Assembly (NCBI GenBank): GCA_963840855.1
Contig: CAWJBB010000033.1
Location: 10,256-74,255, forward strand
Origin: an uncultured delta proteobacterium
GTDB taxonomy: Bacteria > Desulfobacterota > Binatia > UBA9968
Direction of reading: 5' to 3'
Length of the DNA stretch: 64,000 nt
Below are positions 6,573 to 61,681 of this stretch, piece by piece (within the stretch, counting starts at the first letter, position 1; every line of letters begins with the position of its first letter). The translations under genes were made by a program, and so were the position numbers. A model generated the notes under the pieces. That model did not search any database. It worked only from the letters and a program-made list of their open reading frames with translations, and was not told the DNA's origin.

Positions 6573-6609
6573 GTTCAAAGTTCAAGGTACAACGTTCAAG
6601 GTTTCAAGC
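6573..6609. repeat. tandem GTTCAARG units overlapping the 3' end of the bpt-like gene
   Basis: gttcaaagttcaaggtacaacgttcaaggtttcaagc. On the minus strand it encodes the last 8 residues (..RLETLNVVP*) and the stop. Confidence 0.75.
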
Positions 6610-7277
6610 CGTGACTGTGAAGGCGAGACAAAAGGCTTCCATCCCGAGTCCCATTCCAGATACTCCAATCCGGCAAATCGCTTTTTGTAATCGTACGCGA
6701 ATGGTTCCCGGTAAGCGTAGCCTGGATAATAGTAGTGACACCCGCGCTCGCGGGAAAAGCGGATCGAATGAAGCATCATCAAAATGCCCAAGCTCCTCTT
6801 GGCCTGTGCTGGATCGAAGACAGCGTACACCGCCGAAGTCGCGGTTTCTCCCACATCCAGGAACGTGACCCCGACGAGTTTGTCGCCGACATAAACCGAT
6901 AATTCCAGATTCGGACAGGGCACGGCAGCGGGAACGGGCGACAAGAAGTCGTGGAGAGAGGAGGGGATGTTTTCCGTGAAGCGCAGCCTGTGTTTGGCGA
7001 AGAGATCCTCCTTCGCCTCGTCGATTGATGACGCGCCGATAACGAGCTGGGTATCGTGATTGTTCCTGAGCACGCGCTTTTGACCGCGGCTAAGGCTGAA
7101 CCGGTTGAGATCGATACGCAAGGGAAGAACATTAAACTCTACGTCGTCATGCATCGAGGTCCGGTACTGAAAGAAAAAGATACCGAAGTGGCGCCACCCC
7201 TCGGCCCAGAGACGATCCATCTCAGCCGGCGGTACACACAAACAAAGGAAGTTTTGCTGGCGGTTCGAGGTTCCCAT
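6582..7277 (-). CDS. bpt: arginyl/leucyl-tRNA--protein transferase family protein (Bpt/ATE-like)
   Basis: 231 aa from the ATG at 7277. Motifs GWRHFG..FFQY, RIDLNRFSLSRGQKRVLRNN, SAVYAVFDP...SLGILMMLHSI...YYYPGYAY...YDYKKRFAGLEYL match the ATE_N/ATE_C pattern. The track ORF extends to 7877 only as an overlap artefact. Confidence 0.7.
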   Translation of the reverse strand: MGTSNRQQNFLCLCVPPAEMDRLWAEGWRHFGIFFFQYRTSMHDDVEFNVLPLRIDLNRFSLSRGQKRVLRNNHDTQLVIGASSIDEAKEDLFAKHRLRFTENIPSSLHDFLSPVPAAVPCPNLELSVYVGDKLVGVTFLDVGETATSAVYAVFDPAQAKRSLGILMMLHSIRFSRERGCHYYYPGYAYREPFAYDYKKRFAGLEYLEWDSGWKPFVSPSQSRLETLNVVP

Positions 7278-8689
7278 CACGACGAAAAGAACCTTCCGTA
7301 TTTCTTTGCCACCTGCGCTTTCATTTTGGCGCTTGAGCCCGAGGCGAGCGGAAAATCTTTTATCCATTCGTAGGGCCGCGTCGCATCGATGATCGCGCGA
7401 GTGCTGAAGCCCTTTTTGTCTTTCGGTATCACCGGATCGAGGGGACCGCTCCAGGCGCGGCGGATAAAGTCGGTATCGTTGGCAGGGTCCGATCTGGTGC
7501 ACATGGCCCAGAGCACATCGTTCATATCGTAGGGATCGATATCGTCGTCCACGACAACGATGTAGCGTCCCAGGTACGCGCCGGCGCCGCACTGGGCCGC
7601 GATGACACCGGCTTGCTTGGCATGTCCTGGATAACGCTGCTTGATCGACACTGCGGTAAAAAAACGGCCTTGGAAACAAGCGACGCCGCGTATATCCGGC
7701 ACGCCGGCTTTCTCCAAATGATCCCATATAAACGCCGAGCGTACTAGGTTGTCGTCGGAACCGCCAGGAGGCCGCGACGATGGCGCGCCAGTGAGGATCG
7801 GATTGTTGCGGTGCATCAAACGTTTCACTTTGATAATCGGTTCGGTGCGCTCGCCGCTGGCGTAGTAACCAGTCCACTCGCCGTAGGGGCCTTCACGCCG
7901 TTGCTGATCGGATAAACATTCTCCTTCGATGGTGATTTCAGAATAGGCGGGAAACGGCAGACCCGCATGTTTGCCGAGGATGACATCGACCGCCTGGCCG
8001 CGGATTCCCCCAGCGTAATCGTACTCCGATTTACCCCACGGCAGACTATTGGCCGCGGCGGTCAGCAGCAGCGGATCGTCGCCGAAGCTTATCGCCACGG
8101 GGCAGGGGCGGCCTTGGTCGAAGTATTTCTGGCGGATAATCCGGCCCTGTTTTCCCGGCGAGATATAGAGCGCCAGCGTGTCACGATCGTGCACCATGAC
8201 GCGGTAGCAGCCGATGTTGACCCAGCCTTCGTCGATATCGCGGGTAATGACGAGGTGGGCCGTGCCGATATATCGGCCGCCGTCCTCTTCATGCCAGTGC
8301 GGCACCGGCAAAGAGAAGAGGTCGATGTCCTCGCCTTCGTAAACATTTTCCAGCACCGGTCCTGTCTCGACCACCCGCGGCGGGATGTACTGCGGGTTGT
8401 TCAAGCGTTTGCGCCACGCTTGAATAAACTGGTTACGATCATAATCGAGCGGCAGGTGGGTCGTCAGACATTGGCGTTTAAGCGACTGATGGTGGACGCC
8501 GACGAGCACCCGGTGACCCGCGGGATAGTCTTTGATCTTGTCGAAGAGAATCGCCGAATAGGGCGGATTGCGCGCGTATACTTCGGTGACCGCGCCCATT
8601 TCGTATTGCCAATCCACGCCGTCGACATGTCTCAGCTCACCGAACTCGTCAACTCTATCCATCCAGCCGCGTAAATCGTTATATAGCAT
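7277..8689 (-). CDS. UbiD family (prFMN-dependent) aromatic acid decarboxylase
   Basis: About 470 aa with UbiD-type sequence throughout (LRGWMDRVDEFGELRHV...GGRYIGT...DIDPYDMNDVLWAMCTRSDP). ATG at 8689 follows AAGGACAAAAGG. The stop TGA shares its A with the bpt ATG (TGATG). Confidence 0.9.
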   Translation of the reverse strand: MLYNDLRGWMDRVDEFGELRHVDGVDWQYEMGAVTEVYARNPPYSAILFDKIKDYPAGHRVLVGVHHQSLKRQCLTTHLPLDYDRNQFIQAWRKRLNNPQYIPPRVVETGPVLENVYEGEDIDLFSLPVPHWHEEDGGRYIGTAHLVITRDIDEGWVNIGCYRVMVHDRDTLALYISPGKQGRIIRQKYFDQGRPCPVAISFGDDPLLLTAAANSLPWGKSEYDYAGGIRGQAVDVILGKHAGLPFPAYSEITIEGECLSDQQRREGPYGEWTGYYASGERTEPIIKVKRLMHRNNPILTGAPSSRPPGGSDDNLVRSAFIWDHLEKAGVPDIRGVACFQGRFFTAVSIKQRYPGHAKQAGVIAAQCGAGAYLGRYIVVVDDDIDPYDMNDVLWAMCTRSDPANDTDFIRRAWSGPLDPVIPKDKKGFSTRAIIDATRPYEWIKDFPLASGSSAKMKAQVAKKYGRFFSS

Positions 8690-9026: not shown

Positions 9027-9063
9027 GTTCAAGACCTTTTGAACGGCTTAAACGACTTGAACG
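9027..9063. repeat. GTTCAAG/CTTGAAC inverted repeat about 100 nt downstream of TctC paralog I
   Basis: gttcaagaccttttgaacggcttaaacgacttgaac. GTTCAAG at the left end pairs with CTTGAAC at the right end, and there is an inner GTTCAA/TTGAAC pair. Confidence 0.6.
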
Positions 9064-15925: not shown

Positions 15926-15950
15926 ACATTAAAACCTGTTTCGATTTTTG

Positions 15951-16010
15951 GGTTTCGCGTTTCGCGTTCAACTCGAAACTCGAGACGCGGAACTCGAAAC
16001 CGCGAAGCGA
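15951..16010. repeat. tandem/inverted heptamer repeat (TTTCGCG / CTCGAAA / CGCGAAG) in the spacer before the BNR gene
   Basis: ggtttcgcgtttcgcgttcaactcgaaactcgagacgcggaactcgaaaccgcgaagcga. GGTTTCG (15951-15957) pairs with CGAAACC (15995-16001), and several alternative pairings exist. Confidence 0.7.
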
Positions 16011-36201: not shown

Positions 36202-36278
36202 TAGGAGCGCCTCCTTATGCAGGTAAGATTAATTTGCTTATCCCACCGAATGGGTTCGGCTGTCAACTGCTTGATATC

Positions 36279-36477
36279 CAGTTCCTAGTTTCGAGTTTCT
36301 GGTTTCAGGTTAATCGGATCGCGGACGTATATCCGTCCGCGTAAATCGTCGTGTTACGAATCTCAGTAGTTGAGACTGTTATAGGAGTGGTCTCTAAAGT
36401 GGGCTGATTTGAAACTAGAAAGTCTCGAGCTCCGAGACTTGGCTGGACAGAAACTAGAAACCAGAGACTAGAAACTT
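36279..36477. repeat. CTAGAAAC-type inverted-repeat element in the tctA/D-aminoacylase spacer (related copy at 56513-56620)
   Basis: Left arm ccagttcctagtttcgagtttctggtttcagg. Roughly 100-nt core containing the hairpin gcggacg-tatatc-cgtccgc (36321-36340). Right arm gaaactagaaag...cagaaactagaaaccagagactagaaact. Confidence 0.8.
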
Positions 36478-38138: not shown

Positions 38139-39233
38139 CTACTTGCTCAAGATCCGCTTGAGCGCGGCGGTCACGTCGGGCGGCTGATTGACGATTTCCT
38201 TTGCCAGCGATTCAAGCTCCTCGCCCGCGACCGGCCCGGCCTCCCAGCCGCGCTTCTTTAGCTCATCGTTAAATGCAGGGTCCTTAAACATTTTCGTCCA
38301 GGCCTGGCGCAGAATGTTGACTCGTTCTGCGGGTACGCCCGGTGTCGAAACAATGGGCCGCGAACCAAAGCCCCACAGACCCAGATAGGTCGTGATCAAA
38401 CGCCGCTTGGAGTCGGAAATTTTGTATCGCTCCATCAATTCGAAAACAGTCGGTACGTCGGGAATTTTGGGGTGACGTTTCTCTTCGGTCTGGAGGAGAA
38501 TCCGGACGAAGCCCTTCTTGTGCCAGGTCAAGAATGGTTCGCGGCCGAAGAACCCTTCTATCGTGATGGCGCGGCAGTTAACTTCGCCGCGTTCCATGGC
38601 GAGATCTTGTTCGGAGCCGCCGGGATAGCCGCTTACGACGTTGAATTTCAGCCCAAGAGCGTCTTGCAGCAGACGTGGCAGGTCGTAGCCGGTGCTACCC
38701 ACGCCCGTGGCCGAGCACTTCGGCGGATCGTTGGTGTCGCGCAAATCATCCAAGGACTTAAACGGCGCGTCAGAGCGGATATACAGGAGATGTCCGCCGC
38801 GGTCAGGCGTGCCGATCCAGCTGAATTTCGGCCAGTCGAACTGGACTTCCTTGCTCCCGGTTATTTGCGCAATGATCAGTGCGCCGCCGATCGCGCCCAG
38901 GGTAAGCCCATCGGGCTTGGTGACGTTATAAACATGATTCGCCGCAATCATCGCGCCGGCGCCGGGCATGTTCTGGACGACGAACTCCGGATTTCCCGGA
39001 ATGTGTTTTCCGAGAAAACGGGCATAGGTGCGTGCCCATTGATCGTGGTTGTCGCCGGGCTGGTAGCCGACGATCACGCGCAGCGTCTTACCTTGGTAAA
39101 AATTCGCTTGCGCGAATGCTGGTTCAAGGTTCAAGGGGTTCAAAAGTCCAAAAGTTAGAAATCCGAAAACAGAAAGAACCTTGAACAGGTGAACCTTTGA
39201 ACATTTGAACGAATCGTTGAGCGGATAGTTCAT
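38139..39233 (-). CDS. TctC/Bug family substrate-binding protein (array paralog A)
   Basis: Signal peptide MNYPLNDSFKCSKVHLFKVLSVFGFLTFGLLNPLNLEPAFA|QANFYQGKT. Motifs VVQNMPGAGAMIAANHVYNVTKPDGLT, FDWPKFSWIGTP, PPKCS...GEVNCRA. Confidence 0.85.
   Translation of the reverse strand: MNYPLNDSFKCSKVHLFKVLSVFGFLTFGLLNPLNLEPAFAQANFYQGKTLRVIVGYQPGDNHDQWARTYARFLGKHIPGNPEFVVQNMPGAGAMIAANHVYNVTKPDGLTLGAIGGALIIAQITGSKEVQFDWPKFSWIGTPDRGGHLLYIRSDAPFKSLDDLRDTNDPPKCSATGVGSTGYDLPRLLQDALGLKFNVVSGYPGGSEQDLAMERGEVNCRAITIEGFFGREPFLTWHKKGFVRILLQTEEKRHPKIPDVPTVFELMERYKISDSKRRLITTYLGLWGFGSRPIVSTPGVPAERVNILRQAWTKMFKDPAFNDELKKRGWEAGPVAGEELESLAKEIVNQPPDVTAALKRILSK
39121..39210. repeat. GTTCAAGG-type inverted repeat inside the signal-peptide coding region of paralog A
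   Basis: Arms ggttcaaggttcaaggggttcaaaagtccaaaag (39121-39154) and accttgaacaggtgaacctttgaacatttgaac (39178-39210), with a 23-nt loop. Confidence 0.85.
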
Positions 39234-39254
39234 AACGGCCTCACTTTTGTCAAA

Positions 39255-39652
39255 TTTATTTGCTCAAGAGTTTTTTCAGCCATTCGATCACTTCCGGTGG
39301 TTGATCGATCACTTCCTTGGCGTGGATTTGGCCATCGAACGAGGCGAGGCGCAATGCCCGCCATCACTATTGCGGCGTTTTTGGCGACGTTGTAGACATG
39401 GCATTGGACGCGATTCGTGGCCGGATTGCCAGGAATATGTTTCCCCATGCTGCGGGAATAGGCGCGCGCAAAAAGATCGTGCGTATCGCCGGGTAGATTG
39501 CCAACGACGATGCGAATGGTTTTGCCATGGTAAAAATGCTTGCGCGAATACTCGTTCAAGGTTCAAGGGTTCAAGAGTTCAAGGGTCAGAACGGAGAAGA
39601 GTCCGAGAACCTTGAACCCTTGAACTTTTGAACTCTTGAACTGGTTTGCCAT
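39255..39652 (-). pseudogene. internally deleted, frame-broken remnant of a TctC/Bug paralog (A-like)
   Basis: ATG at 39652 (4 nt after the stop of paralog B) gives MANQFKSSKVQGFKVLGLFSVLTLELLNP. Then ..HFYHGKTIRIVVGNLPGDTHDLFARAYSRSMGKHIPGNPA, a short HVYNVAK piece, and a C-terminal ..ASFDGQIHAKEVIDQPPEVIEWLKKLLSK* in another frame. About 690 nt of a roughly 1.09-kb gene are missing. Confidence 0.7.
39554..39642. repeat. GTTCAAGG-type inverted repeat at the 5' end of the TctC remnant
   Basis: gttcaaggttcaagggttcaagagttcaagggt (39554-39586) / accttgaacccttgaacttttgaactcttgaac (39609-39642). Confidence 0.85.
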
Positions 39653-39655
39653 TTC

Positions 39656-40738
39656 TCATTCGCGCCCGAGCACCCACTTCATACGCTCGATGATTTCACG
39701 GGGCTGGGTCATGACCTCCTTGGACAGGCTCTGCAGCTCTTCGCCTTTTGTTGGATCGACCTCCCATCCCTGTTTGGCGGCTTCGCCCAGCAGATCTGGA
39801 TCGGCGATGGCTTTTGCATAGGCGTCGCGAAGAATCTTAACGCGGTCGGCGGGGGTGCCGGGAGCGGCGCCAATGGGGCGGCCAAGGGTGGCGGCGGTCA
39901 AAATAACTTTGGCGAGACGGCGGCCGGCCTCGGAAGTCTTGTACTGCTGCATCAGCTCGATCAACGTGGCAGTGTCCTTCAGCCGTGGATCGCGCTTTGC
40001 GCCGGTTTGCAGCATGACGCGCACATAGCCGGATTTATGCCAGCGTCTGTACGGCTCGCGGCCAAAATAGGTTGCGAGCAGCGGCGACCAGCAGATGACT
40101 TCATTGCGCTCAATGGCCAATTCAATATCCGGAGCCCCCGGGTAGCCGCTGACGATCTGAGTTTTGATGCCGAGAGTTTCTTCCAGGAGTCTGGGAATAT
40201 AGTGGCCAGTGCTGCCCGTACCCGTGCTGCCGCATTTGGCCGGCTCTTTCGCGTTACGTAAATCGTCGATGGTTTTGAATGGCGCGTCGGCGCGAATGTA
40301 ATGGACGATGTCGTTCTTTTCCGGCGAGCCGATCCAGTTAAATTTTGTCCAATCGAATTTCACTTCGGGTCTGCCCACCAGTTGATCGAAATAGAGCGCA
40401 GGGTTGACAGCCCCAAGGGTCAACCCGTCGGGTTTGGCAACGCCATACACGTAATTGGCGCCGATGATGTTCCCGGCTCCAGGCATGTTCTGCACCACGA
40501 TCGACGGGTGTCCCGGGATGTACTTGACGATGTGACGCGCCGTGAGACGCGCCCAGAGATCGTAACCGCCGCCGGTGGTCGAAGCGACGACCAGCGTGAG
40601 GGTTTTGCCCTGATAGAAGGGTGTCTGGGCAGACGCCCGTTCAATGTTCAAGGGGTTCAAGAGTCCAAGCGCCAGGACAAAGAAGAGTCCGATAACATTG
40701 AACGCTTGAACCCTTGAACTTTTGAACGCCTTAGGCAT
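39656..40738 (-). CDS. TctC/Bug family substrate-binding protein (array paralog B)
   Basis: MPKAFKSSRVQAFNVIGLFFVLALGLLNPLNIERASA|QTPFYQGKT. Motifs VVQNMPGAGNIIGANYVYGVAKPDGLT, FDWTKFNWIGSP, PAKCG...NEVICWS. Confidence 0.88.
   Translation of the reverse strand: MPKAFKSSRVQAFNVIGLFFVLALGLLNPLNIERASAQTPFYQGKTLTLVVASTTGGGYDLWARLTARHIVKYIPGHPSIVVQNMPGAGNIIGANYVYGVAKPDGLTLGAVNPALYFDQLVGRPEVKFDWTKFNWIGSPEKNDIVHYIRADAPFKTIDDLRNAKEPAKCGSTGTGSTGHYIPRLLEETLGIKTQIVSGYPGAPDIELAIERNEVICWSPLLATYFGREPYRRWHKSGYVRVMLQTGAKRDPRLKDTATLIELMQQYKTSEAGRRLAKVILTAATLGRPIGAAPGTPADRVKILRDAYAKAIADPDLLGEAAKQGWEVDPTKGEELQSLSKEVMTQPREIIERMKWVLGRE
40639..40727. repeat. GTTCAAGG-type inverted repeat inside the signal-peptide coding region of paralog B
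   Basis: gttcaatgttcaaggggttcaagagtccaag (40639-40669) / acattgaacgcttgaacccttgaacttttgaac (40695-40727). About 26 of roughly 31 positions pair by hand alignment. Confidence 0.85.
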
Positions 40739-40745
40739 CCTTTAC

Positions 40746-41840
40746 TTACTCCCGTCCGATAACCCATTTCATTCGATCGATCACATTTTGCGGCTGACTC
40801 ACGACCTCTTTGGCCATGCCATCGAGCTCGTCGCCGGTGAGCGGGGCCAGTTCCCAGCGCCGTTTCTTCACCTCGGCCAAAAGCTCCGGATCATTCATGG
40901 TAGCGACGTAGGCCTGCCGCAAAAGCTTCACACGCTCCGCCGGCAGCGCGGGCGGCGCGACGATGGGACGGCCCAGGGTGGCGGCTGTTAAGACCACCCG
41001 CGCGAGGCGCTTGCCCGCCTCCGGGGTTTTATACTGGTCCATCAACTCGTAAATGGTTGGCACGCTTTCCAGCCGCGGGTCACGCTTTCTGCCCATTTGA
41101 ACTAGCACGCGTACGAAGCCTTTCTTGTACCAACTCATGTAAGGTTCGCGTCCGAAGAAGGTTGCGATGAGCGGCGACCAACAGATGACTTCCCCTCGTT
41201 CCACGGCCAGATCGATTTCCGTTCCGCCCTGGTAACCACCGACGATGGTGTGCTTCAGTCCGAGTGTTTCTTCGAGAAGTCGCGGTATGTAATGGCCGGT
41301 GGTTCCCGTTCCTGAACTACCGCACCGAGGTGGTTCCTTGGCCGTCCGAATATCTTCCACGGTTTTATACTGTGAGTCGGCGCGCATGTAATGGAGCGGT
41401 TCGTTCTGTTCGGGAGAACCAATCCAGGTAAACTTAACCCAGTCGAATTTGATTTCTGATCGGCCCACCAACTGATCGAAATAGAGCGCGGGAAGAATTG
41501 CGCCAAGCGTAAGTCCGTCGGGTTTGGCTAAGTTATAAATCTGGTTCGCGGCAACGACGGAGCCCGCGCCTGGCACGTTCTGGACGACAATCTCCGGATT
41601 GCCGGGAATATGCTTGCCGTAATAGCGAGCGAGCAAGCGCGCCCATAGATCATATCCACCGCCGGTTGAGGAGCCGACGACGAGCTTGATGGTCTTGCCT
41701 TGGTAAAAAGGCGTCTGGGCAGACGCCAGTTCAAGGTTCAAGAGGCTCAAGAGTTCAACGACAGAAAAGGCAAGGACTCCGAATACCTTGAACCTTTGAA
41801 CTTTTGAACTCTTGAACCCGTGGAGCGGTGACCTTTCCAT
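40746..41840 (-). CDS. TctC/Bug family substrate-binding protein (array paralog C)
   Basis: MERSPLHGFKSSKVQRFKVFGVLAFSVVELLSLLNLELASA|QTPFYQGKT. Motifs VVQNVPGAGSVVAANQIYNLAKPDGLT, PPRCG...GEVICWS. Closest to B. Confidence 0.88.
   Translation of the reverse strand: MERSPLHGFKSSKVQRFKVFGVLAFSVVELLSLLNLELASAQTPFYQGKTIKLVVGSSTGGGYDLWARLLARYYGKHIPGNPEIVVQNVPGAGSVVAANQIYNLAKPDGLTLGAILPALYFDQLVGRSEIKFDWVKFTWIGSPEQNEPLHYMRADSQYKTVEDIRTAKEPPRCGSSGTGTTGHYIPRLLEETLGLKHTIVGGYQGGTEIDLAVERGEVICWSPLIATFFGREPYMSWYKKGFVRVLVQMGRKRDPRLESVPTIYELMDQYKTPEAGKRLARVVLTAATLGRPIVAPPALPAERVKLLRQAYVATMNDPELLAEVKKRRWELAPLTGDELDGMAKEVVSQPQNVIDRMKWVIGRE
41729..41817. repeat. GTTCAAGG-type inverted repeat inside the signal-peptide coding region of paralog C
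   Basis: gttcaaggttcaagaggctcaagagttcaa (41729-41758) / ccttgaacctttgaacttttgaactcttgaac (41786-41817). Confidence 0.85.
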
Positions 41841-41886: not shown

Positions 41887-42919
41887 CTACATCCCGATCA
41901 GTTTTTTTACTTTCTCCACGATGTCCGGCGGGGTGGTCATGACTTCTTTGGCAAGCTTGTCGAGTTCCTCGCCGGCGGCCGGGTCGATATCGAGCCGGCG
42001 CCTTTCCGCCTCAGCCAAGAAGGCCGGATCACTGATCGTCTTGTTAAACGCGTCGCGCATGATCTTCACTCGGTCCGCCGGTACGCCCGGAGGGAAAACC
42101 ATGGGCCGGCCAAACTCGTCGGACGCCACCACGACCTTTACGAGGCGCCGAACATTTTCGGAGGTCTTATACTTGTTCATCAGCTCGTCGAACAACGGCA
42201 CGTCTTTAAGCCTTGGGTCGGGGCTGCCGCCCGTCTGGTAAAGCACGCGAACGAAGTTTTTCTTGCGCCAGGTAATAAACGGCTCACGCGAAAAAAAGGC
42301 ATTGATGGTAAAAGCCCGGCAAACGACTTCGCCGCGCTCCACGGCGAGGTCGATGTCCGATCCCGCGACATACCCCGAGACGATGTCGAACTTGGTGCCA
42401 AACGCATCTTCCATGAGCTTTGGCATATAATACGCCGACGAGGTGACTCCGGTTGCGCCGCACTTGGGCGGACTGGACGCAGTTCGAATATCTTCGATCG
42501 TCTTATAGGGCGCGTCGGCGCGCATGTACATGAGACTCTTCGAGCTTACCGGACTGCCAATCCAGATAAACTTACTCCAGTCGAATTTGGCCTCCGGCCG
42601 CTTGGCGAGTTGCTCGAAGTAGAGCGCGGGATAAATCGCGCCGAGGGTTAGACCGTCAGGTTTGGCGATATTGTAAACCTGATTGGTGCCGATCAATCCC
42701 GCCGCGCCGGCCACGTTTTGAATGATGATGTTTGGGTTTCCCGGAATGTGCTTGGGCATGAATTCCGCGACCAGGCGCGGGTAAAGGTCATAGACGTCGC
42801 CCGGCTTGGCGGCCGCTATTATCGTGACAGTCTTACCCTGATAGTAGGGAGTCTGGGCGGATACACTTGGAGACCCACGCGACGAACAAAAGCAGAAAGT
42901 AGATGACGCTCCGATGCAT
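41887..42919 (-). CDS. TctC/Bug family substrate-binding protein (array paralog D), frame break within the signal-peptide codons (as assembled)
   Basis: GAGGAG RBS plus the ATG at 42919 gives MHRSVIYFLLLFVAW.. in one frame. The mature part ..SVSAQTPYYQGKTVTIIAAAKPGDVYDLYPR... is in the +1 frame (track ORF 41887..42942). Removing one G/C at about 42874-42876 restores MHRSVIYFLLLFVAWSPSVSA|QTPYY. Confidence 0.8.
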
Positions 42920-42963
42920 AAAATCTCCTCTTGATGATTCACTCGACGAGCCCGTTTAATTCT

Positions 42964-43992
42964 CTATGTCCCTAATAATTTTTTCATTCGTTCAATGACT
43001 TCCGGCGGTTGTGCGACAATCTCTTTTGCCAAAGCTTCCAGTTCTTCGCCGGGAACCGGATCCAGGTCCAATCGTTTCTTCTTGGCGTCGTCCAAAAGGT
43101 CCGGATCGCGCACGGACCTCATGAAGGCCTCACGGAGAATTTTCACCCGGTCCGCTGGGATACCCGGAGTCGCGACGATGGGACGGCCAATCTCGTTGGC
43201 GGCCAAGATCACCGCAGCCAAGCGGCGCGCGGAATCGGCGGTTTTGTGTTGGTCCATGAGTTCATGGAGAGTTGGAACCTCAGGCAAATTAGCGTCCCGT
43301 TTCTTGCCGGTTTGAATGATTACACGAACAAAACCTTTCTTACGCCAGGTGTGGAAAGGCTCGCGGGCAAAGAAGGCGGCGATCGTGAAGGCGCGGCATT
43401 GTACCTCGCCTCGCTCTACGGCCAGGTCGACATCCGTGCCGGAGTTGTAACCGGTAACGATGTTGAATTTCGCCCCGATGGTCTCTTCCAAGAGCTTGGG
43501 CAGGTAGTAGGCAGATGAAGCCGTGCCTTCGGCGCCGCACTTGGGCGGCGTGGAAGCTTTGCGGATATCCTCGACGGTTTTATAGGGAGTGTCGCTCCTC
43601 ATGTAGAGCAGATGATGCGACACGGTGGTGTTGCCGATCCAGGTAAACTTTTGCCAGTCGAACTGGACCTCCTTCCGTCCGACGAGCTGATCGAAGTAGA
43701 GCGCGGGTTGGATTGACCCGATGGTGAGGCCATCAGGCTTGGCTACCCCGTAGATGTAATTGGCCGCAACCATGGAGGCCACGCCCGGCATGTTTTGCAC
43801 GATGACATTCGGAGTGCCGGGAATATGTTTTGGGATGAACTGGGCAACCAGGCGCGCATAGAGATCATACACACTGCCCGCTGGGGTACCGGCCACAAGC
43901 CGAATGGTTTTACCCTGGTAGAAGGGGGCCTGCGCGTGAAGGCTAAAGGGCCACAGTAACACGACGAGAAAAATGAAAAAGCTCGAAAACAT
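42964..43992 (-). CDS. TctC/Bug family substrate-binding protein (array paralog E)
   Basis: MFSSFFIFLVVLLWPFSLHA|QAPFYQGKT. Motifs IVQNMPGVASMVAANYIYGVAKPDGLT, PPKCG...GEVQCRA. GAAGGTGG RBS. Confidence 0.9.
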   Translation of the reverse strand: MFSSFFIFLVVLLWPFSLHAQAPFYQGKTIRLVAGTPAGSVYDLYARLVAQFIPKHIPGTPNVIVQNMPGVASMVAANYIYGVAKPDGLTIGSIQPALYFDQLVGRKEVQFDWQKFTWIGNTTVSHHLLYMRSDTPYKTVEDIRKASTPPKCGAEGTASSAYYLPKLLEETIGAKFNIVTGYNSGTDVDLAVERGEVQCRAFTIAAFFAREPFHTWRKKGFVRVIIQTGKKRDANLPEVPTLHELMDQHKTADSARRLAAVILAANEIGRPIVATPGIPADRVKILREAFMRSVRDPDLLDDAKKKRLDLDPVPGEELEALAKEIVAQPPEVIERMKKLLGT

Positions 43993-44195: not shown

Positions 44196-45234
44196 CTATT
44201 TTCCGCCCAGTAACTTCTCCATACGCTGTACGACGTCAGGGGTTGCCGCCATGACCTCTTTTGCCAAGGCCTCGATCTCCGCGCCGGTCGCCGGATCCAT
44301 TTCCAGGCGGCGCTTTTCGGCCGTCGCCAAAAGCGCCGGATCGCTCACCGACTTGTCGAACGCGTCACGCAGTATTTTCAGCCGGTCCGCCGGAACTCCG
44401 GGAGCGGTAACCAGGGGGCGGCCAAACTCGCCGGCGGACAAAACGACTTTTGCCAGGCTTCTTCCGGCGGCCGTCGTTTTATACCGGTCCATCAATTCGT
44501 AGATTGTCGGCGCTTCCTTGAGACGGGCGTCGCGTTTGGCGCCGCTCTGCATCAGAGTGTTGACGAAACCGCGCTTGCGCCAGGAAATGAACGGCTCCCG
44601 GGCGAAATAGGCGGTGATCGTAAAGGCGCGGCAAACCACCTCGCCGCGCTCGACGGCGAGATCCACATCTTGACCGGACTGATAGCCTAACACGATGTCG
44701 AATTTCGTTCCGAGGGTTTCTTCCATGAGTTTGGGCAGGTAATAGCCGGTGGAAGTAATACCGTTGGAGCCGCACTTGGGCGCCGCCGAGGCATTACGGA
44801 TATCATCCATCGATTTATAAGGAGCGTCCGACCGCATATATAATAAGTGGTTCGAGGTGACCGGATTGCCGACCCAGCCGAACTTGGTCCAGTCGAATTT
44901 GGCTTCGGGCTTTTTCGTGAGCTGCTCGAAATAGAGCGCCGGGTAGATGGCGCCGATGGTCAAGCCATCCGGTTTGGCGACGTTGTAGACCTGATTGGCC
45001 GCGATCATCGACGCGGCGCCCGGCACGTTCTGGATAATGATATTCGGATTGCCGGGAATGTATTTCGGCATGAACTCAGCGAGCATGCGCGGGTACAAGT
45101 CATAGGCGTCGCCGGCTTTGGTGCCAACAATAATTGTTATCGTTTTTCCTTGATAAAATGGGGTCTGAGCCTGGGCATGGCCGGCCACGGCAGCTTGCCA
45201 TCAGGATTATTAGAGCGACCAACAAACAATGCAT
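44196..45234 (-). CDS. TctC/Bug family substrate-binding protein (array paralog F), frame break within the signal-peptide codons (as assembled)
   Basis: AAGGAGG RBS plus the ATG at 45234 gives MHCLLVALIILMAS.. in one frame. ..VAGHAQAQTPFYQGKT... is in the +1 frame (track ORF 44196..45188). Removing one base at about 45195 restores MHCLLVALIILMAAAVAGHAQA|QTPFYQ. Confidence 0.8.
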
Positions 45235-45288: not shown

Positions 45289-46296
45289 TTATAACCCACT
45301 AATTAATTCGAGTATTTTTTTCACCCGTGCCAGGACATCCGGCGGTTGCTGCAAAATTTGCTGAGCGAGTTTTTCCAAATGCGCGCCGCTCGTAGGATCG
45401 ACATCCATTCTTTGCTTCCGCGTCTCGGCGAGCAGTTCGGGATCTTTCATGGACTGATCGAAGGCCCGCCGCAGCATTTCGACGCGCTCCGCCGGCGTCC
45501 CCGGACCGGAAATAATCGGCCGTCCGAAGGACTCGGCCGCGAGGATCACCTGGGCAACGCGGCGACTGTTCTCGGGCACGTTTTCTTTGTCGAAGATCTC
45601 CGCGATGGTCGGTACATCAGGGATTCTTTCATCACGCTTGGCGCCGGTATAGAGCAGGATTCGAACAAAGTTTTTCTTTTGCCAACTCAAGAACGGCTCG
45701 CGTCCGAAGAAGGGCGACGCGGTCATGCCACGGCACATGACTTCGCCTTTTTCGACCGCGATGTCGATCTCGGACCCGCCGGGATATCCTAAAACAGTAT
45801 TGATTTTTAGAGGCGGCAAGGTGTCCTCCAACATGCGCGCCAGGATGAAATCGGTGCTGACTGTTCCTGTAGAGCCGCATTTGGGCGGCTCTTTGGCGTT
45901 TTTCACGTCCGAGATGGTCTTGTAAGGACTGTCGGCGCGCATATAAAGAATCATCGGTTCCATGACCGGAGAGCCTATCCAGGCGAACTTGCGCAGGTCG
46001 AACTTCACTTCAGGCCGGCCGACGAGTTGGTCGAGATAGAGGCCGCTGCTTGGAAAACCGATGGTCAAACCGTCGGGTTTGGCGACGTTGTAGACGTAAT
46101 TGGTCGCTACGACGGAACCCGCGCCGGGCATATTCTGCACGATGAAACTCGGATTGCCTGGGATATACTTCGGCATGAAGCGCGACAGCAGGCGCGCCCA
46201 ACGATCGTAAAACCCTCCGGTGGTAAAGCCGACCACAACCCTGACCTGTTTGCCTTGGTAAAAGGGAGCGGCTGGGCGTGAACGTGGAAGAGCCAA
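45289..46296 (-). CDS. TctC/Bug family substrate-binding protein (array paralog G), N-terminus without an in-frame signal peptide
   Basis: The mature sequence AAPFYQGKQVRVVVGFTTGGFYDRWAR... is intact. Upstream, an RBS plus ATG (MNRSIWAS.., about 46321) and a ..LWLFHVHAQ piece lie in the two other frames. At least one frame break or a degraded leader. Confidence 0.7.
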   Translation of the reverse strand: MALPRSRPAAPFYQGKQVRVVVGFTTGGFYDRWARLLSRFMPKYIPGNPSFIVQNMPGAGSVVATNYVYNVAKPDGLTIGFPSSGLYLDQLVGRPEVKFDLRKFAWIGSPVMEPMILYMRADSPYKTISDVKNAKEPPKCGSTGTVSTDFILARMLEDTLPPLKINTVLGYPGGSEIDIAVEKGEVMCRGMTASPFFGREPFLSWQKKNFVRILLYTGAKRDERIPDVPTIAEIFDKENVPENSRRVAQVILAAESFGRPIISGPGTPAERVEMLRRAFDQSMKDPELLAETRKQRMDVDPTSGAHLEKLAQQILQQPPDVLARVKKILELISGL

Positions 46297-50609: not shown

Positions 50610-50702
50610 ATAGGCGAGAGGCGAAAGGCGGTAGGCGTGAGAGTCGACGGAAAAGCGTGCGTTGCCCTAGAACTCATGCCTGTTGCCTCTCGCCTCACGC
50701 GC
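50610..50702. repeat. GGCGTGAGG-type inverted repeat filling the ACAD1/ACAD2 spacer
   Basis: aggcgagaggcgaaaggcggtaggcgtgagag (left, 7-nt period GGCGNNA) / ctcatgcctgttgcctctcgcctcacgc (right). Confidence 0.8.
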
Positions 50703-51819: not shown

Positions 51820-51830
51820 AAAATTTTTAA

Positions 51831-51914
51831 GGCAAGAGGCATGAGGCACTGAGGCGCGAGCAGGGCGAGACGAATTTCGTCTTCCTCTACTGTAGCCTCG
51901 CGCCTCACGCCTGC
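51831..51914. repeat. GGCGTGAGG-type inverted repeat filling the ACAD2/thiolase spacer
   Basis: ggcaagaggcatgaggcactgaggcgcgag ... inner hairpin agacga-aat-tcgtct ... ctcgcgcctcacgcctgc. Confidence 0.8.
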
Positions 51915-55687: not shown

Positions 55688-56506
55688 ATGGCAGACGAAA
55701 AAGTACTTTACGAAGTGAAGGATAAAATCGCGTGGATCACGCTGAACCGACCTGAATCCTTGAATGCGGTAAACCGCGACATGGTGCGGGCCATCGTCGG
55801 TTACTGCAAGCAGGCGAACGAGGATCGAAATGTTCAGATCGTGATCTTTAAAGCCAACGGCGAGAAAGCCTTCTCTGTCGGCGGCGATATTAAAGACCGT
55901 GTGCGCGCAAGCGAGGCGGCCCAGGCGGTTGAACCGGAGTCGCCGCTGGTGCTGCGTCAGGCGAGATATTCGACGATTCCAGGCACGCCGGCGCCGGCCA
56001 TCGCGGCAATCGACAAAATCACCATGGCGCTAGTTCACGGTTACACCGTGGGCACGGGACTGTTGATGAGTCTTGCCTGCGACATTCGCATTGCAGCGGA
56101 AGGCGCTCGCTTGGGACTTAGCGAAATTCGGCTTGGGTTCATGGCCGGTTCCGGCGGTACGCAGCGCATGGCGCGGCTCGTTGGGATTCCTAAAGCGCTG
56201 GAGATCTGTCTGTCCGGTGAGCTTTATGATGCCCAAGAGTGTTACCGCATCGGTCTTGTGAATCAGCTCGTTCCCTACGACCAATTGATTCCAGCCGGCG
56301 AGAAAATGGCCGCGTCATTCTTGAAAGGTGCGCCGCTGGCGCTGCGCTATATCAAGGAAGCGATTTACAAGGGCAGCGAGATGACGCTGGAGCAGGGATT
56401 ACGGTTTGAGTCCGACCTTCAGAGCATGGTGATGCAGACCGAAGACGCCAAAGAAGGGCCGAAGGCGTTCGTCGAGAAACGGCCGGCGGCGTGGAAAGGA
56501 AGATGA
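55688..56506 (+). CDS. enoyl-CoA hydratase/isomerase (crotonase) 2
   Basis: AAAGGAGGAACGA plus the ATG at 55688. KIAWITLNRPESLNAVN, FSVGGDIKD, GYTVGTGLLMSLACD. Confidence 0.88.
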   Translation: MADEKVLYEVKDKIAWITLNRPESLNAVNRDMVRAIVGYCKQANEDRNVQIVIFKANGEKAFSVGGDIKDRVRASEAAQAVEPESPLVLRQARYSTIPGTPAPAIAAIDKITMALVHGYTVGTGLLMSLACDIRIAAEGARLGLSEIRLGFMAGSGGTQRMARLVGIPKALEICLSGELYDAQECYRIGLVNQLVPYDQLIPAGEKMAASFLKGAPLALRYIKEAIYKGSEMTLEQGLRFESDLQSMVMQTEDAKEGPKAFVEKRPAAWKGR

Positions 56507-56512
56507 CTGAGA

Positions 56513-56620
56513 GAGTTTCTAGTCTCTGGTTTTTAGTTTAGCAGCGGGAGAGCAACACGAAGCGATTAGCTGCCCCTGTATTTTGACGACCAGAAACTAG
56601 GAACTAGAAACTAGAAACTC
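56513..56620. repeat. CTAGAAAC-type inverted-repeat element in the ECH2/ACS spacer (inverted copy of the 36279-36477 element arms)
   Basis: gagtttctagtctctggtttttagttt ... 50-nt core ... ccagaaactaggaactagaaactagaaactc. The reverse complement of 56514-56539 matches 36451-36476 at 25/26. Confidence 0.85.
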
Positions 56621-56622
56621 TT

Positions 56623-60971: not shown

Positions 60972-60984
60972 AAATGGGCGTTCT

Positions 60985-61215
60985 AACCGTTCAAGACGTT
61001 CAAACCGTTTGGGATTACGCTCAAGATGGTCAGAAATTCAAAATCCCGATTCCCATTGGGTCATTCTGAACGAAGCGTAGCGGAGTGAAGAATCTCGGCC
61101 GAGATCCTTCGCGTTGCTCAGGATGACGGATAGACTGGCGTGATGATAGATCGATACCAGACTGCCGGTTAACGGCTTGAACGTATTGAACGGCCGGAAC
61201 GGTTTGAACCAAACG
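60985..61215. repeat. nested inverted-repeat (MITE/REP-like) element in the hydrolase/cupin spacer
   Basis: Outer arms accgttcaagacgttcaaaccgtttg (60985-61010) and ggttaacggcttgaacgtattgaacggccggaacggtttgaaccaaacgtt (61166-61215). Inner 68-nt imperfect palindrome gtcattctgaacgaagcg...ctcggccgag...cgcgttgctcaggatgac (61059-61126). Confidence 0.8.
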
Positions 61216-61228
61216 TTACGAGGTGTTT

Positions 61229-61681
61229 ATGCATCTTTCCGCTAAAGTCATAGAGGCCATGGAAGGCGAACGACGGGTTCACTTCGTTAACCCCAAGGCG
61301 GTGCGCATCAACAAATCGCTCGGCGACGCGGCCGGCCTCAAAAACCTTGGCGTTCACATGATGACCGTTGCGCCGGGTGACCGCTCCTCGGAGTATCACT
61401 GTCATCGTTACGAAGACGAGGCGATCTATGTGTTATCCGGTCACGGCACGGCGGTCATTGGCGAGCAATCCTATCGGATCGGACCGGGAGATTTCTTGGG
61501 TTTTCCGGGTGGCGGACCTGCGCATGAAACGATCAACGACAGCGTGGAACCGCTGGTTTGCCTCGTCATCGGCCAACGGCTTGCGCAAGACGTGGTCGAT
61601 TATCCCCGCGCCGGGAAACGGCTATATCGCAACAGCGGGCAGCGGGACATGGTTGACGTGGTAAATGTGCAGAAGCGGTAA
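61229..61681 (+). CDS. cupin domain protein
   Basis: Cupin motifs SEYHCHRYEDEAIYVLSG and GPGDFLGFPGGGPAHETIN. ATG at 61229 lies 6 nt after GAGG. Confidence 0.8.
   Translation: MHLSAKVIEAMEGERRVHFVNPKAVRINKSLGDAAGLKNLGVHMMTVAPGDRSSEYHCHRYEDEAIYVLSGHGTAVIGEQSYRIGPGDFLGFPGGGPAHETINDSVEPLVCLVIGQRLAQDVVDYPRAGKRLYRNSGQRDMVDVVNVQKR

Follow-up and report, generated by a model that had tools for sequence, protein, structure and literature searches.

Tandem-core hairpins translated within the putative signal-peptide codons of TctC genes in Binatia-like bacteria

A palindrome that usually lies between genes in a soil bacterial lineage now doubles as the putative code for an export signal at the start of TctC genes. 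The element is one of the intergenic palindromes typical of this lineage, here called 'tandem-core hairpins': three to five tandem units, each made of an exact core of 5-6 nt and some 2 free bases, are followed by a loop that varies and by the inverted array. In the TctC genes the element segment is translated, and its hexamer cores are under purifying selection at the nucleotide level, for which the protein is no sufficient explanation. The interpretation that we favour, and consider moderately probable, is that a start-proximal mRNA hairpin has been exapted as the TctC signal peptide.

Hairpins in Adjacent TctC Genes

The window, which is the whole stretch of 64,000 nucleotides analysed, carries its TctC genes on the minus strand throughout. 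The element is found in paralog A (38139-39233, 364 aa), paralog B (39656-40738, 360 aa, PF03401), paralog C (40746-41840, 364 aa) and a remnant, R, which is a TctC gene with a broken frame (39230-39652, start at 39652); paralog B starts 7 nt past the stop of paralog C. On the mRNA strand, the layout in all four is (GTTCAANN)x4, a loop of about 30 nt and (TTGAAC)x4, beginning 11-23 nt past the start codon. The minus-strand hairpin of B occupies 40639-40727, with the (GTTCAANN)x4 array of the 5′ arm at 40698-40727 and the 3′ arm at 40639-40668; that of C lies at 41729-41817 (5′ arm 41788-41817, 3′ arm 41729-41758), that of A at 39121-39210 (5′ arm 39181-39210, 3′ arm 39121-39143) and that of R, the most regular of the copies, at 39554-39642.

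When GTTCAARRGTTCAA was searched with at most two mismatches, 17 matches were obtained versus 1.4 expected, a number reached in none of 100 shuffles. Inverted-repeat detection gave arms of 26-31 nt with 74-92% complementarity, the highest value being that of R. Folding of the 95-nt elements as RNA, with z calculated against dinucleotide shuffles, yielded -45.5 kcal/mol for B (z -7.4), -46.9 kcal/mol for R (z -7.4), -34.6 kcal/mol for C (z -3.7) and -28.5 kcal/mol for A (z -4.4). Repeat detection and folding thus bear out the hairpins that the initial annotation had placed within the signal-peptide codons of these four genes, with corrections of detail: the loops given as 22-27 nt correspond to inter-arm gaps of 27-46 nt by exact-unit detection, and an ungapped count for B finds 23 rather than 26 of 31 positions paired.

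As a further control, the region from -30 to +135 of each gene was recoded synonymously. Compared with the recodings, B was clearly more stable (z -3.8, matched by 0 of 400), followed by C (z -2.0) and A (z -0.9), and the repeat-free paralogs E and H gave z values of about 0. In the wider collection of TctC genes, 66 distinct element-bearing leaders averaged -30.8 versus -19.5 kcal/mol for their recodings (z -2.8) and 152 ordinary TctC leaders -20.3 versus -22.1 kcal/mol (z +0.5). The start codons lie upstream of the repeat, the stems are more stable than synonymous recodings and the potential for pairing is retained in relatives, so that none of the findings that would have overturned the account of these hairpins was obtained.

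A second, short and G+C-rich hairpin in C (41710-41727, minus strand) covers the cleavage-site codons (GGCGTCTGCCCAGACGCC = ASAQTP) and is followed by TTTTTAC. B has a counterpart at about 40619-40638, and A has one at 39102-39117 (ATTCGCGCAAGCGAAT = FAQAN). This hairpin reaches -9.0 versus -4.9 kcal/mol for synonymous recoding in element-bearing genes, and the same region of other TctC genes -4.1 versus -3.6 kcal/mol.

Decay and Stability of the Arrays

Relative to a sister strain, A, B and C of the window have one decayed unit each: a 5′-arm unit of A reads GTTCAC, the innermost 3′-arm unit of B reads TTGGAC and one hairpin unit of C reads TTGAGC. In L201, the syntenic contig, the B ortholog keeps all four units, and the counterpart of R is an intact 360-aa gene. 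Loss of a single nucleotide from the 3′ arm breaks the frame of R, which has also suffered a large internal deletion. An arm indel that inactivates a gene, together with a unit length that is no multiple of three, might suggest a contingency locus in which slippage of 8-nt units toggles each TctC gene. This is highly improbable, for leaders from many samples show practically no departure from 4+4 units, and the orthologs of the two strains differ by point changes with unit number equal.

Translation of the Element

The 5′ arm codes for FKSSxVQxFKV, the loop for a hydrophobic core (VIGLFFVLALG in B) and the 3′ arm for LLNPLNLE, followed by AxA|Q. This is the layout that the initial annotation had described, and inspection of the n-, h- and c-regions suggests that the leader is a plausible Sec-type signal peptide, so that a single element would provide both this peptide and the strong stem seen on folding. 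The same leader occurs at about 100 of 241 TctC gene starts on Binatia-like metagenome contigs, with the start codon 11-35 nt upstream of the element in this TctC subfamily. About 90 distinct leaders keep an open frame across the element and encode a conserved peptide made up of FKSSKVQxFKV, a hydrophobic stretch and ELLNPLNLE. Loop codons have T at position 2 with a frequency of 0.75, versus 0.24 at position 1 and 0.30 at position 3. Element-free paralogs have an ordinary signal peptide in the same location.

The coding version is further distinguished by the spacing of its 3′ arm, which is 8-9-7. Among intergenic copies 8-8-8 predominates, one spacing of 7 nt occurs in a few and 8-9-7 in none. 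Since regular 8-8-8 spacing gives a TGA in every one of the three frames, the 8-9-7 spacing avoids the in-frame TGA; in R, where the spacing is 8-8-7, an in-frame TGA is present (MANQFKSSKVQGFKVLGLFSVLTLELLNP*). The coding arrangement is a derived form of the intergenic one, in agreement with the earlier proposal that the repeat was recruited into the reading frame. The companion proposal of an invasion of reading frames, taken as a general habit, is not supported: when 1.84 billion representatives were searched with the leader alone, the coding version was found in TctC-type proteins only.

Intergenic Relatives

That the repeat is an independent kind, as first supposed, is supported by copies outside reading frames whose loops (15-170 nt) are unrelated. 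Three such sites in the window had been listed as the same octamer. The first is indeed a related intergenic repeat, but a 9-mer variant with core CGTTCAA, (CGTTCAANN)n ... 161 nt ... (TTGAACGNN)n, located at 60979-61209 (plus strand; previously 60985-61215) and flanked by a stop codon and by the SD/ATG at 61229. The second, at 9027-9063, is non-coding as stated, but is a partial 9-mer array of TTGAACGNN type. The third (6573-6608; previously 6573-6609) is an array, but a direct-only one, in which GTTCAAG is repeated about five times; the ORF at 6582-7877 takes its TGA stop from one of these units, read as TTGAAC on the minus strand.

The same architecture occurs with the cores GTTTC, GAGGC and TGGAGT, also between TctC genes outside the window. 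One such element, (AGTTTCT)n ... (AGAAACT)n, lies at 56512-56621 (plus strand) right after a stop at 56506, further GTTTC-core copies lie at 15950-16008 and 36277-36476, and GAGGC-core copies at 50612-50695 and 51830-51912. Elsewhere, MAGs of Binatia and of 'delta proteobacterium' have intergenic copies upstream of trpA, CoA-transferase, UbiD, ABC permease, dioxygenase and other genes, and copies are also present in Planctomycetes, one cyanobacterium and one Ferruginibacter. The usual order is stop, hairpin, SD, start. The GTTCAA-then-TTGAAC order outnumbers the reverse by 15:1, direct-only arrays adjoin starts at some loci, and outside arrays the hexamer occurs at chance frequency.

Constraint on the Hexamer Cores

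Synonymous sites within the hexamers are 93-100% fixed, versus 47-65% in the 2-nt spacers and a mean of 63% in the mature protein, among paralogs with just 45-90% identity in the mature protein. Counted by codon, positions with their third base in a hexamer show one codon in 95-100% of cases (TTC, AGT, TCA, GTT, CAA, GAA, TTG, AAC and CTT) and positions with it in a spacer in 52-63%, beside a mature-region mean of 0.63 (Mann-Whitney p = 2e-8). Several of the near-invariant codons are rare in mature regions (GTT 11%, TCA 7%, AGT 7%, CTT 10%), and fixation persists when sequences are chosen by the opposite arm only. It could be supposed that only the signal peptide matters and that the palindrome is left over from the origin of the leader, neutral and without a present nucleic-acid role. 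Copies do erode, gains, losses or decay of the element recur across the TctC tree (26 Fitch changes), and many close paralogs function with ordinary leaders. This reading is nevertheless improbable and already disfavoured, because the hexamer sites are frozen beside variable spacer and mature-region sites and rare codons are often among the fixed ones. The reading might be rescued by gene conversion that had recently spread entire leaders, but the varied spacers and loops argue against this.

Hairpin or Binding Site

According to the explanation that we prefer, a GTTCAA-type copy would have been absorbed into the reading frame of one TctC (Bug) subfamily in Binatia-like bacteria, its 5′ arm becoming the basic n-region, its loop the hydrophobic core and, with its spacing changed from 8-8-8 to 8-9-7, its 3′ arm the LLNPLNLE segment before AxA|Q. 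As a nucleic acid, it would serve as an mRNA hairpin opening each cistron, stable yet deliberately imperfect, its 6-bp helices interrupted by small mismatched loops. Because most genes start 0-7 nt past the upstream stop (an upstream ORF ends within -22 to +7 nt of the start in 42 of 68 leaders), we propose that the hairpin hinders independent 30S initiation, sets processing or stability, or does both. Expression of each TctC copy would then be tied to translation of the preceding gene.

The signature of RNA pairing is absent from these leaders, which counts against the preferred explanation and leaves the initiation throttling and processing suggested at the outset unsupported. No compensatory changes were found in 24 hexamer pairs, whose covariation score matches shuffled controls; there is no excess of G·U among pairing deviations (A·C 22, G·U 24); and folding shows no strand asymmetry (sense -33.9 versus antisense -34.2 kcal/mol), with sense:antisense counts of 35:31 in TctC leaders and 8:7 in intergenic copies. 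Nor is pairing the full account: the spacers are mainly unpaired, some 20 leaders have a degraded 5′ arm or none but keep the hexamers and synonymous sites of the 3′ arm, and some arrays next to starts are direct-only.

The main rival to the mRNA hairpin is a core-binding factor. The arrays (UUGAACNN)4 would be candidate sites at which a multimer reads exact GTTCAA/TTGAAC cores in single-stranded RNA or DNA or in duplex DNA; hairpin potential would be secondary, and a regulatory array would overlap the signal-peptide codons of TctC. Such a factor, which we regard as possible but doubtful, would agree with the missing RNA-pairing signature, exact cores beside free spacers, a single core at unrelated loci with unrelated loops, conservation of a 3′ arm without its partner, direct-only arrays and the favoured order of the cores, and a post-transcriptional regulator has been proposed for TAACTGA repeats (MacGregor, 2015; PMC4679880). 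However, at least four cores (GTTCAA, GTTTC, GAGGC, TGGAGT) share one architecture and position in one lineage, so that several factors would be needed, periods of 7, 8 and 9 nt are ill-suited to same-face binding on B-DNA, a protein that might be the factor did not emerge, and the non-array hexamer is at chance frequency.

Comparison with Known Elements

A mobile or recombinational element (MITE, REPIN, attC-like or crossover substrate) that moves or amplifies TctC genes is quite improbable. One element per gene boundary in tandem co-oriented arrays, the internal deletion in R and an arm-to-arm deletion in one leader (L132) would suit it. A shared core with unrelated loops and loci nevertheless argues against copies of one mobile sequence, spacers also differ among copies and target-site duplications are not visible; frozen hexamer synonymous sites beside free spacers are unnecessary for recombination and are left unexplained by the earlier idea that recombination substrates built the array. 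Integron attC sites are similar in being imperfect hairpins with unpaired bases, one per boundary of a co-oriented array, with a core beginning GTT. However, the GTTCAAG core does not fit the R-box consensus GTTRRRY, the genes are paralogs, unlike unrelated cassettes, the element lies inside the downstream ORF, and copies are present in ordinary operons such as trp.

REP/BIME and REPIN elements are likewise abundant, imperfect intercistronic palindromes with proposed roles in mRNA stability. Here, in contrast, the arms are tandem short-core arrays with free spacers, the GTAG/CGTC head is absent and loops are unrelated among copies. A parallel in translation is provided by the Rickettsia palindromic elements (RPEs), reportedly described by Ogata and colleagues in Science in 2000, a palindromic family that is both intergenic and translated in frame. 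RPEs are copies of one 100-150-bp sequence inserted at many genes that are unrelated to one another, where they mostly form internal surface segments, whereas the copies described here share tandem cores only and are translated in a single protein family, as an N-terminal signal peptide (putatively) with 8-9-7 re-spacing and frozen synonymous sites.

The cyanobacterial STRR and TAACTGA repeats, the latter heptamers located just upstream of start codons in Beggiatoaceae, Cyanobacteria and Bacteroidetes (MacGregor, 2015; PMC4679880), also have 7-9-nt tandem units in 2-6 copies a few nt upstream of starts, a patchy cross-phylum distribution and possibly a post-transcriptional function. They comprise 169 direct sets and one indirect (PMC4679880), whereas the elements described here are typically foldable inverted pairs, of which one type is translated. 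Finally, the enterobacterial fusions of RU-1/RU-2 (ERIC/MITE-like) elements with ORFs (Delihas, 2007; PMC2759123) were predicted in silico at a single locus without evidence of continued nucleotide-level selection, whereas the TctC leaders comprise about 100 diverged gene copies in which a dual constraint is measurable.

Hairpins in the leaders of the TctC genes

The TctC (Bug-family, PF03401) genes of the window form a tandem, co-oriented series on the minus strand, consisting of copy A (38139-39233), a remnant termed R (about 39230-39652), copy B (39656-40738), copy C (40746-41840) and five additional paralogs, D-H. PF03401 is present in 120/120 of the best homologs of B, and TctC and Bug family are among the source names. 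In the mRNA sense, each of the leaders of A, R, B and C has a run of four GTTCAA units spaced 8 nt apart, which three or four TTGAAC units follow after a gap of 27-46 nt; these hexamers are referred to here as cores and the 2-nt gaps between them as spacers. The motif has 17 matches in the window against 1.4 expected, which is far beyond chance. The leader hairpins reported in the initial annotation are real repeats, and the observation can now be extended to the wider TctC family.

The elements exceed their synonymous and shuffled controls in stability. The 95-nt segments have folding energies of -28.5 to -46.9 kcal/mol, with z-scores of -3.7 to -7.4 relative to dinucleotide-shuffled sequences, and in the comparison with synonymous recodings B lies beyond 400/400 and C reaches z -2.0, but A only z -0.9; the ordinary leaders of E and H score about 0.

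R corresponds to an intact 360-aa TctC gene in the syntenic contig of a related strain (L201, 11087-12169), whose gene B shares 96% identity with that of the window. One hexamer is eroded in each of A, B and C of the window, and the same hexamer is intact in the L201 strain. Separately, a proper signal peptide in frame with the mature protein is missing from three paralogs, D (41887-42990), F (44196-45188) and G (45289-46296). In D the string MHRSVIYFLLLFVAWVS lies just upstream in a different frame, which reflects either a frameshift (decay) or a sequence error.

Probable translation of the element as a signal peptide

The coding layout is as originally described: the 5' arm encodes FKSSxVQxFKV of the n-region, the loop encodes the hydrophobic core and the 3' arm encodes LLNPLNLE, next to which the AxA|Q site follows. 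The n-, h- and c-regions of B read MPKAFKSSRVQAFN / VIGLFFVLALGLL / NPLNIERASA|Q, and those of A and C are similar on inspection. By the same inspection, the leaders of A, B and C appear to be of the Sec type, the pattern of which is an n-region with basic residues, about 10-15 hydrophobic residues as h-region and a c-region with small residues at -3/-1. At 37-41 aa the leaders are long, with c-regions of 10-13 residues, and the AxA|Q(T/A)(P/N)FYQGK junction is also found in paralogs with ordinary leaders.

The reading frame is open across the whole element. Three consecutive TTGAAC units at a period of 8 nt inevitably put TGA in frame; intergenic copies mainly have distances of 8-8-8 between successive units of the 3' arm, with one 7-nt spacing in a few and 8-9-7 in none. 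The TctC copies are arranged as TTGAAC-nn-TTGAAC-nnn-TTGAAC-n-TTGAAC, and this 8-9-7 spacing keeps the TTGAAC units outside the TGA phase. R has 8-8-7 spacing and reads ...LELLNP*; its ortholog in the sister strain has the normal spacing and is intact. In the loop codons, T has a mean frequency of 0.75 at position 2, compared with 0.24 and 0.30 at positions 1 and 3, and reaches 0.96-1.00 at position 2 in five of the nine codons, a bias that marks selection for hydrophobic residues. Judged by the open frame, the 8-9-7 spacing and the period-3 signal of the loop, the element segment is most probably translated. Its first unit begins 11-35 nt downstream of the start codon, and in 42 of the 68 leaders the end of an ORF located upstream falls in the interval -22..+7 nt relative to the start.

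Constraint on the cores as nucleic acid

The share of the commonest codon is 0.95-1.00 where the third base falls within a hexamer, as compared with 0.52-0.63 where it falls in a spacer of the same arms and an average of 0.63 at the conserved residues of the first 75 mature codons. The hexamer-embedded codons (TTC, AGT, TCA, GTT, CAA, TTC, CTT, GAA, TTG, AAC, TTG, AAC, CTT, GAA) differ from those of the mature region with a Mann-Whitney p of 2e-8, and several of the fixed codons are seldom used in these genes, where GTT makes up 11% of the Val codons, CTT 10% of the Leu codons, and TCA and AGT 7% each of the Ser codons. The first leader set had been chosen by exact hexamers, and ascertainment might inflate hexamer conservation; this explanation is countered by a repetition of the test with selection on the opposite arm only, which gave 0.93-1.00 for hexamer-embedded and 0.47-0.65 for spacer-embedded sites. 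Youth cannot explain the frozen sites, because the mature proteins of element-bearing genes have pairwise identities of 45-97% (mean 63%), and whole-leader gene conversion is argued against by the varied spacers and loops. Codon usage indicates that the hexamer cores are also constrained as nucleic acid. The element represents a clean natural case of overlapping codes, in which the period-3 constraint of the protein and the period-8 constraint of the nucleic acid can be separated column by column within 90 nt, and the 2-nt spacers provide an internal control for the dual constraint.

Spread in the TctC family

The best 120 homologs of B are from metagenomes of soil and groundwater, and some carry the label 'Deltaproteobacteria bacterium' or 'Candidatus Binatia'. 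The leader M..FKSSKVQAFKV-hydrophobic-ELLNPLNLE(R/P)xxAQ is common to most of them, and others, including P0078, which is 87% identical to B, have an ordinary signal peptide on the same QxxFYQGKT start. Of the 241 TctC 5' ends in 200 fetched loci, exact hexamers number 2+2 or more in 75, and the element profile detects 100. When the 38-residue leader alone was compared with 1.84 billion cluster representatives, 15 proteins were found, and because 15/15 run on into FYQGKT, the coding version is confined to TctC. The exapted leader has spread across a large solute-binding protein family of uncultured soil and groundwater Binatia.

On the tree of mature proteins, which is a rough neighbor-joining tree with leader classes assigned by nhmmer (exact hexamer counts miss decayed copies), leader type is clustered yet labile, with 26 changes compared with 63 after shuffling. 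These 26 state changes, with the element class intermixed with ordinary leaders, rule out a single capture. In one metagenome locus (L132; FYQGK at locus position 1253, leader about 170 nt upstream), the 5' arm of a TctC gene runs straight into the two final units of the 3' arm, and the loop and hydrophobic core are absent; this fusion looks like a palindrome-mediated deletion.

Intergenic relatives and other cores

When one genome per species was scanned for runs of three GTTCAA units 8 nt apart, at least 120 loci were obtained. Among the matches listed, an inverted partner is present at 16 loci, 11 of which belong to Binatia or 'delta proteobacterium' MAGs, and the order is GTTCAA...TTGAAC at 15 of the 16. 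The intergenic copies have loops of 15-170 nt that are unrelated in sequence, and are located between divergent starts or after a stop codon and ahead of the SD/start of cytoplasmic genes of unrelated kinds, including trpA and genes for a CoA-transferase, a UbiD-type decarboxylase and an ABC permease. Copies of (GTTCAANN)4-loop-(TTGAACNN)4 also occur in distant phyla, namely in Tepidisphaeraceae (L106, 4663-4740), Phycisphaerales (L066), a cyanobacterium (L028, 3239-3375) and Ferruginibacter (L081), and those of L028, L081 and L106 lie between divergent gene starts; the sampling of these copies is subject to ascertainment, as their core was the one searched for.

Inverted arrays with other cores were censused by core-spacing scans, a TRF-based census being too insensitive. 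In the window, (GTTTCNN)n..(GAAACNN)n hairpins are located directly after a stop codon at 15950-16008, 36277-36476 and 56512-56621, and (GAGGCNN)n..(GCCTCNN)n hairpins occupy the same position after a stop codon at 50612-50695 and 51830-51912; most of the five, for example those at 15950-16008, 36277-36476 and 51830-51912, also precede the next SD/start. A CGTTCAA 9-mer hairpin at 60979-61209 has the same stop-hairpin-(SD)-start architecture. Nested in its loop (about 61060-61135) is a second, unrelated imperfect palindrome, gtcattctgaacgaagcgtagcggagtgaagaatctcgg / ccgagatccttcgcgttgctcaggatgac, which looks like a separate REP-type repeat.

Regular arrays contain stops in all three frames, and the ORF at 6582-7877 on the minus strand, named bpt in the initial annotation, takes its TGA stop from one of the TTGAAC units in the direct array at 6573-6608. 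Hairpins of the form (TGGAGTNN)n..(ACTCCANN)n, whose units include an SD-like GGAG, are found between TctC genes with ordinary signal peptides in six loci (oriented position of FYQGK in brackets, with the leader about 170 nt upstream): L135 (10012), L137 (1864), L160 (10321), L161 (272), L174 (11139) and L184 (376). In L135 the hairpin is followed by an ordinary signal peptide, and in L137 the protein begins with MTPTLQHSISP, residues encoded by its 3' arm. The natural reading of these arrangements is that a normal intercistronic hairpin was absorbed into the following ORF. Recruitment of the repeat into ORFs, one of the two origins suggested at the outset, is supported, and a concrete route from non-coding palindrome to signal peptide is available, in which the lysines and LLNPLN come from the arms and the hydrophobic core from the U-rich loop.

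Such arrays cause gene callers to mis-start ORFs, with N-termini such as MNFGFWIFDFGL or MECWSTGVME, and the leaders will mislead signal-peptide predictors and codon-based selection tests. Eight homologs (P0042, P0059, P0072, P0075, P0082, P0093, P0106 and P0117) have predicted N-termini such as MNFGFWIFDFGLSD or LNDLNGLDVLN, which are translated short tandem repeats of other kinds upstream of ordinary signal peptides and are probably gene-caller over-extensions into arrays.

Comparison with known repeat classes

Several known classes were considered and rejected. The copies do not share their loops (15-170 nt), and target-site duplications were not seen at the flanks on inspection, which excludes a MITE; the arms start with GTTCAA and the GTAG/CGTC head of REP/REPIN sequences is absent. 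Integron attC sites do not fit, because GTTCAAG has C at position 4 (compared with the R''/R' boxes RYYYAAC / GTTRRRY) and the array consists of paralogs, not unrelated cassettes. Directly downstream of the long hairpin comes GGGCGTC or CAGCATTC, and the T-run of an intrinsic terminator is absent. A phase-variable repeat or contingency locus is contradicted by the constant number of about 4+4 units and by the L201 orthologs, which differ by substitutions only. As uptake or Chi-like words, the hexamers are not enriched outside arrays in the window (17 and 16 observed, about 17 and 14 expected). TTGAAC resembles a sigma-70 -35 box, and promoter-like sites were not found at the elements; the spacing to CGTC is, by eye, incompatible with ECF-type -35/-10 elements.

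In Rfam, no match to the window reached the gathering score, the only hits being chance matches to miRNA precursors (E-values 0.1-0.7), and literature searches on the motif or peptide strings, Binatia repeats and STRR hairpins gave nothing specific. Start-proximal direct repeats of heptamers (TAACTGA, STRR) are known and resemble the non-coding relatives of the element, but are not inverted (PMC4679880). The leader element is a palindromic repeat that coding sequence has exapted, and its dual-code signature is unusually clear. It differs from known cases in that the copies have only tandem cores in common, that about 100 diverged copies occur in one protein family, that the repeat is re-spaced so that the frame stays open, and that the dual constraint is measurable. 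Because the motif strings gave no literature hits and Rfam gives no match, this appears to be a previously undescribed kind of start-proximal repeat with several cores.

Possible role of the nucleic acid

The pairing proposed initially is not borne out by compensatory change: with a hand-built structure for 67 leaders, 0/24 hexamer pairs showed a double change and the covariation score was 0.050 compared with 0.051 after shuffling, which is weak evidence because the paired columns barely vary. Deviations from pairing show no preference for G·U over A·C (24 vs 22). In the TctC leaders, sense and antisense strands fold alike (-33.9 vs -34.2 kcal/mol), and strand-dependent folding is also absent in 15 intergenic copies of known orientation. 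The spacers are largely unpaired, about 20 leaders have a decayed or missing 5' arm with the 3' arm intact, and direct-only arrays adjoin some starts; unpaired spacers, lone 3' arms and direct-only arrays are awkward for a pure pairing model.

A factor that recognises the cores themselves is a serious rival. The architecture and position are the same for several unrelated cores, however, and several unknown binding factors would then be needed; a structural role is simpler. For this reason we favour a hairpin in which periodic mismatches would be part of the design, the 6-bp helices being interrupted by small loops so that no long perfect dsRNA or palindromic DNA would form. Translational control by such leader hairpins is plausible and unproven. 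The underlying tandem-core hairpins themselves stand a fair chance of being an undescribed class of element. A more far-reaching proposal is tentative and, taken as a whole, rather unlikely: that they are an undescribed class of bacterial cis-element found in several phyla, built in situ from exact 5-6-nt cores and free 2-nt spacers and read by one or more factors, possibly as RNA, and that the TctC leaders are a true dual code, with a signal peptide and a live array of regulatory sites co-evolved on the same 90 nt (8-9-7 re-spacing, hydrophobic loop, frozen cores).

A small hairpin at the cleavage site

In element-bearing genes, the codons of the cleavage site fold into a short G+C-rich hairpin, for which there are three different sequence solutions: GGCGTCTGCCCAGACGCC, encoding ASAQTP; ATTCGCGCAAGCGAAT, encoding FAQAN; and GGCGGCGGCGCAGACGCCGCC, encoding AAAQTPP. 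In the window it is located at 41710-41727 in C, about 40619-40638 in B and 39102-39117 in A, and it is also present in related loci. A terminator reading was rejected, since a T-run follows in just 13% of element leaders and in the window the arrangement is terminator-like in C only. The small hairpin is restricted to genes with the long hairpin, in which its mean energy is -9.0 kcal/mol compared with -4.9 for synonymous recodings, the corresponding values for other TctC genes being -4.1 and -3.6.
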